UHGV virus genome: UHGV-0120107
Source of the DNA: a virus
Strand: one strand, 5' to 3'
DNA: 15,363 nt
The position numbers were made by a program, and so were the translations under genes. Positions 5,258 to 11,687 of this stretch are shown piece after piece; position 1 is the first letter of the stretch, and every line of letters starts with the position of its first letter. Under the pieces are notes generated by a model. It saw only the letters and a program-made list of their open reading frames with translations, was not told the origin of the DNA and ran no database searches.

Positions 5258-7134
5258 GGCCAAGTGAACTCAGCGACCTGCTTTGGGCGCAGGTTGACAG
5301 GGTGGCTCCGCACCTGTTGCCAAACGGCAAGAAAGAGGGGCATGAGTGGGTTGCCGGTAACGTCAACGGCGACAAGGGAAACAGCCTTAAGGTCAACCTT
5401 AGCGGCAAGAAAAAATGGGCTGATTTCGCCGAGGGAGACGGCGGTGACATGCTTGATTTGTGGATGGCATGTCGTGGAATTAACCTGCATCAGGCTATGC
5501 AGGAAGCGAAAGCATTTCTCGGTATCAAGGATGACGATCACCATTTCGATGCCAAACGTGAGAAAAAATTCTCCAGACCTGATCGCAAGAAAATCGCCCG
5601 CTACGTTACCAGAACAGAATCCCATCTTGAGTACCTGCAATCGCGTGGCATATCGCCAGAAATCGTAAAGCGCTACGAGGTTGTCAGCGGCAAGGTGTGG
5701 AATGGAGAGCGGGAACTGGATGCTCTGGTGATTCCGTACAAACGCGATGGTGAGTTGTTGCAGGTCAAGCGAATCAGCACTGAGCGCCCGGACGGGAAGA
5801 AAGTCATTATGGCAGAAGGTGATTGCGAACCTTGTCTGTTCGGATGGCAGGCTCTGGACGCTGGCGTGAGGGCGGTTGTGCTTTGCGAAGGCGAAATTGA
5901 TTGTATGAGCTATGCGCAATACGGCATCTCGGCGTTATCCGTGCCGTTTGGTGGCGGGAAAGGCGCTAAGCAGCAGTGGATTGAGTTTGAGTATCACAAC
6001 CTCGACAGGTTTGAGGAAATATTCATCTCGATGGACGTTGATGATGTTGGTCGTGAAGCCGCAAGGGAAATCGCAAGCCGACTCGGTGAACATCGTTGCC
6101 GTCTTGTTACTCTGCCGTACAAAGACATCAACGAATGCCTGATGAACGGTGTTACCGAGGATGAAATCTGGCAGTACATCGGCACGGCATCCTACTTCGA
6201 TCCTGAAGAACTCTACAGCGCGCGAGAGTTTTACCAGGACACTATCAACGCTTTCTACGGCAAGCAGCAGTATCTGTTTAATCCACCGTGGGAATCTCTG
6301 GCAGATAAATTCCAGTTCCGTGAGGCAGAGTTGACGCTGGTCAATGGTGTGAACGGTCACGGAAAAACGGAGGTTGTCGGGCATATGGCACTTGAGGCAA
6401 TGCGTCAGGGTGTGAAGACGTGCATCGCGTCACTTGAGCTGAAGCCTGGTATTCTCCTTAAGCGCCTTACCCGTCAGGCGACGTGCTGCAAGATGCCGCC
6501 AGTGCTGGAAATTGACTCTGCATTTAAATTTTATGACGAAAGACTTTGGGTGTTTGGTCTGACCGGAACGGCGAAAGCCGACAGGCTGATCGAAATATTC
6601 GACTACGCTCGCCGCCGATACTGGATCCAGTTATTCATCATCGACAGCCTGATGAAATGTGGCATAGGCGACGATGACTATAACGGGCAGAAGGCGTTTG
6701 TTGACTCGATTTGCGACTTCAAAAACAAAACAAACTCCCACGTCATTCTCGTTACTCACTCGCGAAAAGGAGACAGCGAAGAAAAACCAACCGGGAAAAT
6801 GGACGTAAAAGGCTCTGGAGCGATAACAGACCTGACAGACAACCTTTTCATCATCTGGCGTAACAAGGCTCGCGAGAGAGCGTTACAGAGAGTTCAGAGT
6901 GGTGAAAAGATGTCAGAGAAGGACGAACAGCTACTGGCATCTCCGGCATCTGTTTTGATGCTTGAAAAGCAACGTAACGGCGAAGGTTGGGAAGGTGGTG
7001 TCCCGTTGTTCCTTGACGAGCAATCGCACCAGTTCCTGCAACTTGAATCAGGATCGCCATATAGCTACATCGCCAATATGCCGAAATCGGAATATGACGA
7101 GGCGTGGCGACAGGAAAACGTGACGGAGTATTAA
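5254..7134 (+). CDS. Fused DNA primase (Toprim) / DnaB-family helicase replication protein (626 aa)
   Basis: RBS AGAGGGA. Toprim-like motifs (VVLCEGEIDCMSYAQYG and FISMDVDD). Walker A NGVNGHGKTE and Walker B-like LFIIDSLM in the C-terminal half. Takes the place of lambda P or P22 gene 12 after the O-like initiator. Confidence 0.8.
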   Translation: MRPSELSDLLWAQVDRVAPHLLPNGKKEGHEWVAGNVNGDKGNSLKVNLSGKKKWADFAEGDGGDMLDLWMACRGINLHQAMQEAKAFLGIKDDDHHFDAKREKKFSRPDRKKIARYVTRTESHLEYLQSRGISPEIVKRYEVVSGKVWNGERELDALVIPYKRDGELLQVKRISTERPDGKKVIMAEGDCEPCLFGWQALDAGVRAVVLCEGEIDCMSYAQYGISALSVPFGGGKGAKQQWIEFEYHNLDRFEEIFISMDVDDVGREAAREIASRLGEHRCRLVTLPYKDINECLMNGVTEDEIWQYIGTASYFDPEELYSAREFYQDTINAFYGKQQYLFNPPWESLADKFQFREAELTLVNGVNGHGKTEVVGHMALEAMRQGVKTCIASLELKPGILLKRLTRQATCCKMPPVLEIDSAFKFYDERLWVFGLTGTAKADRLIEIFDYARRRYWIQLFIIDSLMKCGIGDDDYNGQKAFVDSICDFKNKTNSHVILVTHSRKGDSEEKPTGKMDVKGSGAITDLTDNLFIIWRNKARERALQRVQSGEKMSEKDEQLLASPASVLMLEKQRNGEGWEGGVPLFLDEQSHQFLQLESGSPYSYIANMPKSEYDEAWRQENVTEY

Positions 7135-7164
7135 ATGACCATCTACATCACTGAGCTAATAACA

Positions 7165-7193
7165 GGGGCTATTTACACAGTAGCCCTTTTTTA
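7165..7193 (+). terminator. Intrinsic terminator (tR2-like) between replication genes and the nin region
   Basis: Hairpin GGGCTA-N9-TAGCCC (7166..7186) followed by TTTTTT (7187..7192), 30 bp past the primase/helicase stop. Confidence 0.6.
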
Positions 7194-7219
7194 TTGGATT
7201 AAGAACGAGGGGGATCCTG

Positions 7220-7558
7220 ATGGACACCGTTAACGGAATGTGTTCAGACGCACCGCGTGCCAAAAAATGTAAATGCGGAAAATCACCGACAATATTCGAC
7301 ATGGAGAACGGGTGCCAAATCTACTGCGCTAACCACGCCGCTGTGGCGGCCGCGAATTATCGCAGTGCGGTAACGGAGTGGGAAGATGGAGCAAGGCGTA
7401 ATAGGTACTGGAAATCATCAAGCCTTCCAGTTTGTGAAAGATTCAACCACAGGCCAAAACCAAAACGTAGCCGGCGAGACAAAGTGTTGAAAAAACTCAT
7501 GCAAATTAACATGGCTGGTTTTGTCAGATTCGTGAGTGAAACGACTAACGGGGATTGA
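7220..7558 (+). CDS. Hypothetical Cys-rich protein (112 aa), first nin-region gene
   Basis: Strong RBS GAGGGGGA. Cysteine cluster CKCGKSPTIFDMENGCQIYCANH suggests a zinc-binding fold. Basic C-terminus. Confidence 0.55.
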   Translation: MDTVNGMCSDAPRAKKCKCGKSPTIFDMENGCQIYCANHAAVAAANYRSAVTEWEDGARRNRYWKSSSLPVCERFNHRPKPKRSRRDKVLKKLMQINMAGFVRFVSETTNGD

Positions 7559-7559
7559 T

Positions 7560-7913
7560 ATGGACGAATCAAGAAAGTCTTTCGAGCAATGGGCATCAAA
7601 GCAATTCAATATCTCAGTAGAGGAAATTGTTAATAAGCGAATGCTGGGTGATTACCTGCACAACCCAGACTTACATAATGCATGGCAAGCATGGATAGAT
7701 AGCAGGGCGGCAATAGAAATTGAGCTACCAAAGCCTCATGCACATCTTATATGGATTCAGGCTGGTCATGCGCCTGACGATTATTGGGATGATGTGGCGG
7801 TGTCATATAGCGAAAAGGATAAATGCTGCGACGGTTCAGACCGCTATCCTGTGCATGCTGGATGGGAAATTGAAGAGGTTCTTCGCGCCGCTGGAATCAA
7901 AGTGAAGGAGTGA
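7560..7913 (+). CDS. Hypothetical protein (117 aa), nin region
   Basis: ATG at 7560 with GGGGA upstream, two nt after the previous stop. The track start at 7536 is a GTG. Acidic protein containing a CCDGSDRYPVHAGWE segment. Confidence 0.55.
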   Translation: MDESRKSFEQWASKQFNISVEEIVNKRMLGDYLHNPDLHNAWQAWIDSRAAIEIELPKPHAHLIWIQAGHAPDDYWDDVAVSYSEKDKCCDGSDRYPVHAGWEIEEVLRAAGIKVKE

Positions 7914-7915
7914 GT

Positions 7916-8068
7916 ATGAGCGGAATAATAACCGGCATAGCAGCTGGCATGTGCGCTGGCTCAGCAGTCGCCGCAATCCTCTGGGATGAAGAGTGGAATT
8001 TGCGGACGTTTATCAAATATCAGGTTGCGGCACTTGGGATTGTTTCTGCAATGTACATTCTGAGGTGA
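7916..8068 (+). CDS. Small hydrophobic protein (50 aa), likely membrane peptide
   Basis: AAGGAG RBS at 7905..7910. ATG overlaps the previous stop. Translation MSGIITGIAAGMCAGSAVAAILWDEEWNLRTFIKYQVAALGIVSAMYILR. Below the track cutoff. Confidence 0.45.
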   Translation: MSGIITGIAAGMCAGSAVAAILWDEEWNLRTFIKYQVAALGIVSAMYILR

Positions 8069-8083
8069 GTATGAGGCCAACTT

Positions 8084-8533
8084 ATGCAAATCGAGATGAT
8101 CAAGACCGCAGGGGGAGTATTCGCTCCGGCGTTTGAGCATGACCTTCCCCGCCTTACCAAGTTCCAAAACGGCGAGATGTACACAGCCGAATTCAAGTTA
8201 ACCCGCAATCCTGCATTCCATCGAAAAATGTTCGCGTTCTTCAACTTCTGCTTTCAGCACTGGGCTGCTGACAAGGCAGGTCTTGAGCATGCCGACGAAA
8301 CCACTCAGTTCAACCGGTTCAGAAAAGACCTGACGATACTGGCTGGCTTCTACGACATGGTGACGAACATTCGCGGTGAGGTTAGGGCAGAGGCTAAAAG
8401 CCTGTCATACGGCAGCATGGAGGCAGATGAATTCGAGCGTTGCTACAGCGCCATGATTAACGCAGCTATCAAGCATGTGTTTGGCAAGACGAAAGACCAG
8501 AACGTGCTGAATCAGCTCTACAACTTTTTCTGA
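8084..8533 (+). CDS. Hypothetical nin-region protein (149 aa); possibly DUF1367/YbcN-like
   Basis: GAGG RBS. Sits where DLP12-type prophages carry ybcN. The family assignment is a tentative recollection. Confidence 0.55.
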   Translation: MQIEMIKTAGGVFAPAFEHDLPRLTKFQNGEMYTAEFKLTRNPAFHRKMFAFFNFCFQHWAADKAGLEHADETTQFNRFRKDLTILAGFYDMVTNIRGEVRAEAKSLSYGSMEADEFERCYSAMINAAIKHVFGKTKDQNVLNQLYNFF

Positions 8534-8539
8534 GGTTAT

Positions 8540-8722
8540 ATGGGAAAGCAGCGACGAAGCATAACTCAAATCGCAATGGACAACCTGATATTCATCCCCA
8601 CCAAACGCTCCAGAAACAAACCCAAGCCAGTACCTTCCGAATAAGACGTAACGACCTTTAACTACACCGCGCACCTGTGGGATATCCGCTGGCTGCGTGA
8701 CCGTGCGAGGAAAACAAGGTGA
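8540..8722 (+). pseudogene. ninE: ninE-like gene interrupted by an in-frame TAA stop at codon 35
   Basis: ATG at 8540 (GAGG RBS) encodes [34 protein letters not shown], then TAA at 8642..8644. The same frame continues DVTTFNYTAHLWDIRWLRDRARKTR to TGA at 8720..8722. Both halves resemble lambda NinE (60 aa) as I recall it. Confidence 0.5.
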
Positions 8723-8889
8723 TTGACCCAAATCGAAGTTACGAACAAGAAAGCGTAGAGCGAGCTTTAACGTGCGCTAACTGCGGTCAGAAGCTGCATG
8801 TGCTGGAAGTTCACGTGTGCTCCGATTGCTGCGCAGAACTGATGAGCGATCCGAATAGCTCAATGTACGAGGAAGAAGACGATGAGTGA
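8719..8889 (+). CDS. ninF: NinF-like small zinc-ribbon protein (56 aa)
   Basis: GTG start overlapping the ninE stop. Translation VIDPNRSYEQESVERALTCANCGQKLHVLEVHVCSDCCAELMSDPNSSMYEEEDDE with two Cys pairs. Resembles lambda NinF as I recall it. Confidence 0.55.
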   Translation: MIDPNRSYEQESVERALTCANCGQKLHVLEVHVCSDCCAELMSDPNSSMYEEEDDE

Positions 8890-11363: not shown

Positions 11364-11687
11364 ATGAAGATGCCAGAAAAACATGACCTGTTAGCTGCCA
11401 TTCTCGCGGCAAAGGAACAAGGCATCGGGGCAATCCTTGCGTTTGCAATGGCGTACCTTCGCGGCAGATATAATGGCGGTGCGTTTACAAAAACAGTAAT
11501 CGACGCAACGATGTGCGCCATTATCGCCTGGTTCATTCGTGACCTTCTCGACTTCGCCGGACTAAGTAGCAACCTCGCTTATATAACGAGCGTGTTCATC
11601 GGCTACATCGGTACTGACTCGATAGGTTCGCTTATCAAACGCTTCGCTGCTAAAAAAGCCGGAGTAGAAGATGGTGGAAATCAATAA
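11364..11687 (+). CDS. S: Holin S, lambda type (107 aa, dual-start motif MKM)
   Basis: Near-identical to lambda S as I recall it ([64 protein letters not shown]...). GGGGG RBS. Confidence 0.9.

Follow-up and report, generated by a model that had tools for sequence, protein, structure and literature searches.

Three accessory genes at the start of a lambdoid nin region: a deletion-generated gene fusion, a two-module phiTE_015-family protein and a rare predicted small membrane protein

Our data indicate that the three open reading frames between the replication genes and the NinB-like gene of virus genome UHGV-0120107 very probably mark the start of a lambdoid nin region and are ordinary accessory cassettes, genuinely coding, drawn from a gene pool that lambdoid nin regions share. 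The window analyzed here (15,363 nucleotides) is one entire metagenome contig (ENA ERZ1755925 NODE_552). These frames, ORF1 to ORF3, had been described as three unknown ORFs, and they can now be defined as two conserved small genes fused by a deletion, a two-module phiTE_015 protein, and a rare, selected small membrane protein. All three are coding beyond chance, on the evidence of dN/dS or pN/pS and of their recurrence in public assemblies, where the exact ORF1 protein occurs on approximately four to five contigs, that of ORF2 on 374, and that of ORF3 on 35. By sequence match, all but ORF3 can be placed in named families of uncharacterized proteins. What we say about the function of the three products draws on composition, position, and predicted structure.

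We found that the gene order runs cII, O-like, toprim primase-helicase, terminator, ORF1 to ORF3, NinB-like, YbcO, RusA, Q-like antiterminator, and holin, which identifies the locus as part of a lambdoid early-right operon. The initial annotation had listed a Cys-rich ORF of 112 residues, an acidic one of 117, and a hydrophobic one of 50 with an AAGGAG ribosome-binding site, and had placed them at the opening of the nin region; all three are present where it put them (Table 1), and the order from the primase-helicase through the terminator to NinB-like, YbcO, RusA, and Q bears out that placement. The genes are closely spaced, with 1 nucleotide between the ORF1 stop and the ORF2 start and 2 nucleotides between the ORF2 stop and the ORF3 start, and tight gene packing of the same kind has been reported for lambdoid nin regions (PMC8022706). 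The view that the nin region is dispensable for growth likewise agrees with published work, in which nin genes were dispensable in the laboratory (PMC5630979).

Table 1. Coordinates of features at the start of the nin region, counted from the first nucleotide of the window
Feature	Position	Strand	Description
32-aa ORF (HK97 gp56; "ninA" in phage CUS-3)	7135-7233	+	putative gene; PHROG 5907, E 6.9e-18
tR2-like intrinsic terminator (predicted)	7164-7197 (hairpin 7164-7188)	+	10-bp stem, 5-nt loop, then TTTTTTATT
ORF1	7220-7558	+	112 aa; 6 Cys, 5 of 6 within the first 36 residues; pI 9.65; in-frame fusion protein
gp60-like module of ORF1	7220-7381	+	residues 1-54; 100% DNA identity to HK97; C8, C17-x-C19, C32-x3-C36, H39
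Deletion joint	7381-7382	+	codon boundary between W54 and E55; 267 bp missing vs UPEC_U013 (L005) and L009; microhomology 1 nt
DUF7301 module of ORF1	7382-7558	+	residues 55-112 = DUF7301 residues 14-71; strongly basic, pI 11.3
ORF2	7560-7913 (from ATG)	+	117 aa; 22 acidic vs 13 basic residues; pI 5.04; Phage_phiTE_015 family
ORF2 N-terminal module	7560-7715	+	residues ~1-52; predicted three-helix bundle, pLDDT 88-95; motifs MDESRKxFE..W, WxAWxxSRAAIE
ORF2 C-terminal module	7716-7913	+	residues ~53-117; predicted mainly beta-strand plus one helix, moderate pLDDT 65-81; LPKPHAHLIWIQAGHAPDDYWDDV...CCDGS.RYPV...AAGIKVKE
AAGGAG Shine-Dalgarno of ORF3	7903-7908	+	7 nt 5' of ATG, within conserved last codons of ORF2
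Boundary repeat, left copy, GTGAGTATGAG	7910-7920	+	11 bp; spans ORF2 stop and ORF3 start
ORF3	7916-8068	+	50 aa; GRAVY +0.92; predicted two-helix membrane hairpin
Boundary repeat, right copy, GTGAGTATGAG	8065-8075	+	11 bp; at ORF3 stop
NinB-like recombination mediator	8084-8533	+	149 aa; downstream neighbor; PHROG 319 NinB/Orf, E 4.8e-56; Pfam DUF1367, E 8.4e-21

The tR2-like terminator that had been proposed just before the ORFs was recovered as a stable hairpin, with an RNA fold of -17.4 kcal/mol (z = -5.3) that none of 200 shuffled sequences equaled in stability. Its 10-bp stem and the following UUUUUUAUU correspond to the GC-rich hairpin and U-run of an intrinsic (rho-independent) terminator, and termination is predicted here. 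In Intestinirhabdus alba (L027), the equivalent place holds a hairpin of different sequence with a T-run. The hairpin of the window is contained in a 32-aa ORF, the putative ninA/gp56 gene, which starts directly after the helicase stop codon and overlaps the start of ORF1 by 14 nucleotides. This overlapping ORF was missed in the initial annotation, as were the ORF1 fusion and the family memberships described below; its cluster comprises 120 members, often mislabeled "histone H1".

Judging from the anatomy of the locus, transcripts from the early-right promoter would have to pass the tR2-like hairpin, which in lambda occurs via N antitermination, and ORF1 to ORF3 would then be translated as a close-packed series, each with its ribosome-binding site in the end of the preceding gene. 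We found no promoter-like site on the plus strand between positions 6800 and 8700, and minus-strand ORFs and promoter-like sites in the region did not exceed chance level (3 found vs 2.4 expected). A scan of the whole window against Rfam matched no family. Since plus-strand promoter-like sites were absent, expression of ORF1 to ORF3 should depend on early-right readthrough of the terminator, during lytic growth, and expression in the lysogen, which prophage-encoded defense or exclusion would need, is not indicated. Lytic-phase expression is a better fit to host takeover or counter-defense than to prophage-encoded defense.

The 112-residue protein with a cysteine cluster exists as an ORF, but its gene is not native and was created, in one phage lineage, when a deletion fused two genes. 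Residues 1-56 match PHROG 6308 (HK97 gp60; E 7.3e-41) over profile positions 1-56 of 70, the C-terminal 14 positions being absent. Residues 55-110 match PHROG 1785, and residues 55-105 match Pfam DUF7301 (PF23975) with 76.6 bits against a cut-off of 27, over positions 14-64 of 65 and with the first 13 absent. The undeleted order was found in Escherichia coli UPEC_U013 (L005) and in L009, a metagenome relative that shares the downstream genes of the window, and consists of ninA (32 aa), a gp60-like gene (67 aa), a 60-aa gene (PHROG 21123), a DUF7301 gene (71 aa), and a phiTE_015-family gene. The undeleted layout is also retained in an E. coli F5 prophage, which has the same ORF2 allele (99.7% identity). 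Relative to this layout, alignment and junction analysis show that exactly 267 bp are absent from the window, the joint reading ...ACGGAGTGG/GAAGATGGAGCA.... A single illegitimate in-frame deletion of 267 bp joined gp60-like residues 1-54 to DUF7301 residues 14-71, yielding a protein of 112 aa, and removed the 60-aa gene. The exact fusion is carried by approximately five contigs from at least two samples, always beside the same neighboring genes, and therefore the fusion is real and confined to one lineage.

Both parent families of ORF1 are genuine genes. Among gp60-like homologues, dN is 0.05-0.07 with dS saturated, and the DUF7301 part has a pN of approximately 0.30 vs a pS of approximately 0.70-0.76, indicative of purifying selection. 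Both families are uncharacterized. Composition tentatively points to DUF7301 as an Arg/Lys-rich peptide that probably binds nucleic acid. AlphaFold2 modeled ORF1 poorly (pLDDT 56.7), and the Foldseek matches of this model are meaningless.

We consider it nearly, if not quite, an even call that ORF1 is a decaying remnant, that is, that a deletion in dispensable DNA left an accidental in-frame fusion that is tolerated and has no role of its own. Microhomology at the joint amounts to just 1 nucleotide, as is typical for illegitimate deletions, and one in three deletions is in frame by chance. Furthermore, the fusion occurs in one lineage as opposed to the widespread intact genes, it cuts off the conserved gp60 residues N55 and L57 and the first 13 residues of DUF7301, and phage Sf6 readily yields spontaneous nin deletions under selection (PMC5630979). 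Set against this, the fusion retains all of the conserved Cys and His residues of the gp60 module and 51 of the 65 DUF7301 profile positions, its reading frame is intact and its ribosome-binding site good, it was found in at least two independent samples, and the contig name states a coverage of 278x.

The gp60-like family is tiny: an exhaustive HMMER search through 1.84 billion representative proteins yielded only eight. C8, C17-x-C19, C32-x3-C36, and H39 are conserved even in P0216, the most divergent gp60-like member, and all six are present in ORF1. These conserved residues suggest metal binding, and we tentatively regard the gp60-like module as a small, probably zinc-binding protein. In HK97, CUS-3, L022, L023, and P0216, the native gp60-like gene lies directly upstream of the NinB-like gene and overlaps its start. 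The module in the window does not adjoin the NinB-like gene; it is fused to DUF7301, with ORF2 and ORF3 in between.

In other loci (L006, L015, L017, where the gene is uncalled, and L027), the slot before ninB is taken by Lar. This shared position and a C.CG...C...C...A..EWN pattern prompted the question of whether gp60-like proteins are Lar homologues, which we rejected as they failed every sequence criterion. Pfam Lar_restr_allev (PF14354) gave no match to ORF1 or to three gp60-family proteins at E<=10, in a search that gave a genuine Lar 50.5 bits. The two CxxC zinc knuckles of Lar (CPFCG ... CxxC) are absent from gp60-like proteins, which have C-K-C-G and C-x3-C instead. Comparison of gp60 with Lar by hhalign gave a probability of 0.6% over 9 columns, a value of limited power given that both alignments are shallow, and none of the eight gp60-like proteins from the HMMER scan was a Lar or a sequence bridging the two. 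The resemblance to Lar thus appears to be positional only.

Recognition of ORF2 rests on a precomputed Pfam assignment of the exact protein to PF26207 (Phage_phiTE_015) and on a match to PHROG 343 (E 4.9e-19); the NCBIfam phiTE_015 model gave no match to this allele. The structure prediction that had been suggested as a check was informative for ORF2 but not for ORF1: the AlphaFold2 model of ORF2 (mean pLDDT 80.7) has two parts, of which the N-terminal three-helix bundle is confident. Across phiTE_015 members, the constant parts are MDESRKxFE..W, W.AWQASRAAIEI, and the terminal IRAAGIKVKE, with a core in between whose sequence and length are hypervariable. In Klebsiella Ead/Ea22-like proteins, the C-terminus is approximately 77% identical to the core of ORF2 (LPKPHAHLIWIQAGHAPDDYWDDV..CCDGS.RYPV). 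For lambda Ea22, the C-terminal domain has been proposed to bind a host protein (PMC10834534). The C-terminal module of ORF2 gave no match to the solved lambda Ea22 C-terminal domain or to any other PDB entry. By analogy with Ea22-like proteins, ORF2 would consist of a constant three-helix module and an exchangeable C-terminal module and would most likely be a binder of a host partner, an assignment that we make with low confidence.

The nearest relative of this DNA differs from segment to segment over approximately 950 bp. Positions 7135-7381 have 100% DNA identity to HK97 32059-32305, positions 7382-7577 have 98% DNA identity to Stx phages, and the body of ORF2 has 99.7% DNA identity to the E. 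coli F5 prophage, while the ORF3 cassette has no match in complete E. coli genomes or deposited phages. Such patchwork is typical lambdoid nin-region mosaicism. The 11-bp boundary repeat has two matches in the window, one at each end of ORF3, and only 4 of 200 shuffles reach two. Furthermore, the stop/start junction (...GGAATCAAAGTGAAGGAGTGAGTATG) is conserved across 11 loci with differing flanking genes and across phiTE_015 alleles. Cassettes would be exchanged at these conserved junction sequences, with ORF3 having a junction on either end. Recombination at conserved boundary sequences is a long-proposed mechanism for lambdoid mosaics, and the repeat-bracketed ORF3 and the conserved junction are consistent with cassette exchange in this manner.

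ORF3 is rare and strongly selected. We found pairwise dN/dS values of 0.09-0.21, with synonymous sites near saturation, indicating strong purifying selection and ruling out a spurious ORF. Changes among homologues are conservative within the hydrophobic helices, and the inter-helix loop ILWDEEWNLRTFIKYQ is almost invariant. The first helix carries a glycine zipper (G3xxxG7xxxG11xxxG15), and the second hydrophobic segment is shorter. Members of the family fall into 8 clusters with 72% identity or more and were found in 3 of 2.9 million IMG/VR contigs and in 1 of 185,579 species genomes, that of Intestinirhabdus alba. A tblastn search of 50,697 phage records returned no match, complete E. coli genomes left ORF3 without a match, and searches of Pfam, NCBIfam, and PADLOC were empty, with a single non-significant match among PHROGs (E 0.072). 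Some homologues carry an IMG label of F-type ATP synthase subunit c, which is unsupported: ORF3 has no Pfam match, its second helix contains no Asp or Glu, and hhalign against E. coli AtpE gave a probability of 0.3%.

At 12 of 13 distinct loci, ORF3 comes 2 nucleotides after a phiTE_015-family gene irrespective of the allele, the exception being Intestinirhabdus alba, where it directly follows the terminator. Of five distinct allelic contexts, three (L015, L017, and L027) have Lar as the gene after ORF3; in the lineage of the window, that gene is NinB-like. From its helices and position, ORF3 may be an inner-membrane hairpin that self-associates and is produced early in lytic growth, a reading that we hold with low confidence.

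Glycine zippers are typical of tightly packed, often channel-forming helix oligomers. It is possible, if on the unlikely side, that ORF3 is a membrane-active toxin or a modulator of lysis timing, i.e., a small pore-forming or depolarizing peptide in the manner of type I toxins, holins, and antiholins. Its 50 residues, two hydrophobic segments, and GxxxGxxxGxxxG zipper would suit such a role, as would strong purifying selection that falls above all on the inter-helix loop. However, neither Pfam nor PHROG matched ORF3 to Hok, Ldr, TisB, holin, or another family, and its place in the early operon is distant from the lysis cassette, whose holin lies at 11364.

We next consider counter-defense, as the initial annotation had viewed the three ORFs as candidates for host-interaction or defense-related functions. 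That reading received no direct support, given that PADLOC was negative and that a plus-strand promoter-like site was absent. PADLOC-DB contained no family matching ORF1 to ORF3, both parent proteins of ORF1, or the NinB-like neighbor at E<=1. Sequence and profile searches of the PDB returned nothing significant, with no match for ORF2 and best E values of 0.7 for ORF1 and 0.084 for ORF3, and a BFVD fold search returned uncharacterized phage proteins only. Likewise, we found nothing on function in the literature on DUF7301, phiTE_015, HK97 gp60, ninA, or nin-region Lar. Across Pfam, PHROGs, NCBIfam, PADLOC, and PDB sequence and fold searches, homology of ORF1 to ORF3 to characterized proteins, characterized nin proteins among them, was not found. 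The earlier statement that none of the three is recognizable thus holds for characterized homologues, but not for family membership, with ORF1 belonging to PHROG 6308 and DUF7301 and ORF2 to Phage_phiTE_015/PHROG 343 (374 contigs).

We regard it as unlikely, at perhaps one chance among several, that at least one of ORF1 to ORF3 is a counter-defense factor (anti-restriction or anti-abortive-infection) or a superinfection-exclusion factor, and counter-defense during lytic growth is possible. In related phages, the slot from phiTE_015 to ninB holds Lar, a known restriction-alleviation family, which also directly follows ORF3 in the contexts counted above; gp60-like genes occupy the same slot and have a C-x-C-G...C-x3-C...A-x2-E-W-N pattern that superficially recalls Lar. 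Constant ends around a hypervariable core, as in phiTE_015 proteins, are often seen in arms-race proteins, and the dispensability of the nin region (PMC5630979) points the same way. On the other side stand the negative PADLOC search, the failed Lar comparisons by Pfam, hhalign, and HMMER, the lack of a plus-strand promoter-like site for the lysogen expression that exclusion needs, and an experimental literature in which we found nothing. The boldest proposal, which we consider improbable, is that ORF3 is the founder of an unnamed family of two-helix proteins in the inner membrane, with 50 aa and a glycine zipper, that Enterobacteriaceae lambdoid phages would make early in lytic growth, often encode directly upstream of Lar, and use in membrane counter-defense or superinfection exclusion, and, separately, that ORF1 is a new two-module protein caught in the act of arising from a single deletion between neighboring accessory genes.

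Our preferred reading of the region, as ordinary accessory cassettes of the lambdoid nin gene pool, has little importance beyond annotation. The locus nevertheless illustrates, in a small space, how lambdoid nin regions may be built, by cassette swaps at stop/start junctions and an occasional illegitimate deletion that yields a chimeric gene, and the ORF1 fusion is a tidy case of chimeric gene formation by a single deletion. The most interesting remainder is ORF3, a rare and strongly selected predicted small membrane protein. If any product is anti-restriction or membrane-acting, the strongly conserved, putative zinc module of gp60-like proteins and ORF3 would be the first candidates.

Several known systems resemble parts of this locus. 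T4 Imm and HK97 gp15 are small phage inner-membrane proteins, and ORF3 is similar to them in being short, in having two predicted transmembrane segments, and in being an accessory-cassette gene; it differs in being much shorter, in having no sequence similarity to them, and in having no detected promoter of its own for lysogen expression. Lar/RalR (PF14354) shares with the native gp60-like gene the slot that overlaps the ninB start, a small and Cys-rich product, and a C-terminal A..EWN motif, whereas gp60-like proteins have C-x-C and C-x3-C in place of two CxxC and are without an HMM, profile-profile, or bridging match. Like lambda tR2 and other nin terminators, the predicted terminator lies directly 3' of the replication genes and before the nin genes, but here the hairpin is inside a 32-codon ORF (ninA/gp56) with its own ribosome-binding site. 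Phage_phiTE_015 proteins (PF26207, PHROG 343), such as Sf6 gp48 and ST64T Orf-86, have the same N-terminal three-helix module and ...AAGIKVKE end as ORF2. With Ead/Ea22-like proteins (PF13935), ORF2 shares its C-terminal module, and its constant N-terminal part and exchangeable C-terminal domain recall lambda Ea22 (PMC10834534), although ORF2 contains no coiled coil and sits in the early-right operon and not in the exo-xis region. Finally, ORF1 residues 1-54 are identical to HK97 gp60 (PHROG 6308) and residues 55-112 are 98% identical to DUF7301 proteins (PF23975), such as ST64T Orf-69 and Stx2-1717 gp30, all encoded at the same nin-region location; in the window, the two have become one fused polypeptide, with the gp60 C-terminus, the DUF7301 N-terminus, and the intervening 60-aa gene lost.

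We found that phiTE_015-family genes end in approximately 30 nucleotides (...GCCGCTGGAATCAAAGTGAAGGAGTGA) that hardly vary among alleles whose cores are unrelated, based on comparison of 7884-7922 of the window with loci L003-L022. Genes of this family consist of a hypervariable core between constant ends. The 3' end provides the ribosome-binding site of the next gene, whichever gene follows, be it ORF3 (the 50-aa predicted two-helix membrane protein), Lar, gp60-like, Orf-98, or NinB.

In E. coli UPEC_U013 (NZ_CP058596; locus L005), the ORF3 slot is occupied by an ORF of 63 aa that contains two hydrophobic segments and starts at the same junction sequence as ORF3. The RefSeq annotation lacks this ORF as well as three further genes, namely ninA, the PHROG 21123 gene (60 aa), and the gp60-like gene; the four lie within 1501-1961 and 2510-2701 of the locus. 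Similarly, in locus L017 a Lar gene (MSLPKPCPFCG...WNRRAGDEE) directly 3' of the ORF3 homologue is uncalled. Three 50-aa ORF3 homologues from JGI/IMG (P0048, P0049, and P0052) carry the IMG label 'F0F1-type ATP synthase membrane subunit c / V-type subunit K', which is probably an artefact of their Gly/Ala-rich helix.

The gene at the NinB position matches PHROG 319 'NinB/Orf recombination mediator' (E 4.8e-56), while its Pfam match is DUF1367 and not the NinB family. An ATG at 8071, out of frame with this gene, opens a 21-codon frame that is identical to the C-terminus of P0216, a divergent gp60-like protein. The frame looks like the footprint of a gp60-like gene that formerly overlapped this NinB allele. 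Downstream, approximately 185 bp (8534-8718) separate the NinB-like gene from a 56-aa ORF that may resemble NinF, an unusually loose spacing for a nin region. In the public record, neither the 185-bp interval nor the 56-aa ORF has a called gene.

Coordinates of features in the window
Feature	Position	Description
ninA (HK97 gp56)	7135-7233	32-codon ORF
NinB-position gene	8084-8533	149 aa
56-aa ORF	8719-8889	GTG start

The tR2-like hairpin lies wholly inside ninA, which has a GGAG ribosome-binding site of its own. Translation of ninA would presumably interfere with folding of the hairpin, and therefore termination at this site could be translation-dependent. Intestinirhabdus alba (L027 2414-2500) contains a diverged ninA-like ORF with a hairpin and T-run at the equivalent place, and the hairpin sequence differs from that of the window. 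Many NCBI records name the ninA peptide 'histone H1', a label that is clearly spurious.

Along the window, the nearest relatives change sharply at gene boundaries (7134/7135, 7381/7382, about 7577, and 7913/7916), giving four or five mosaic segments within 950 bp. Identity to HK97 of 100% starts exactly at the ninA ATG, while the gene upstream of ninA encodes a DnaB-type helicase in HK97 versus a toprim primase-helicase in the window phage.
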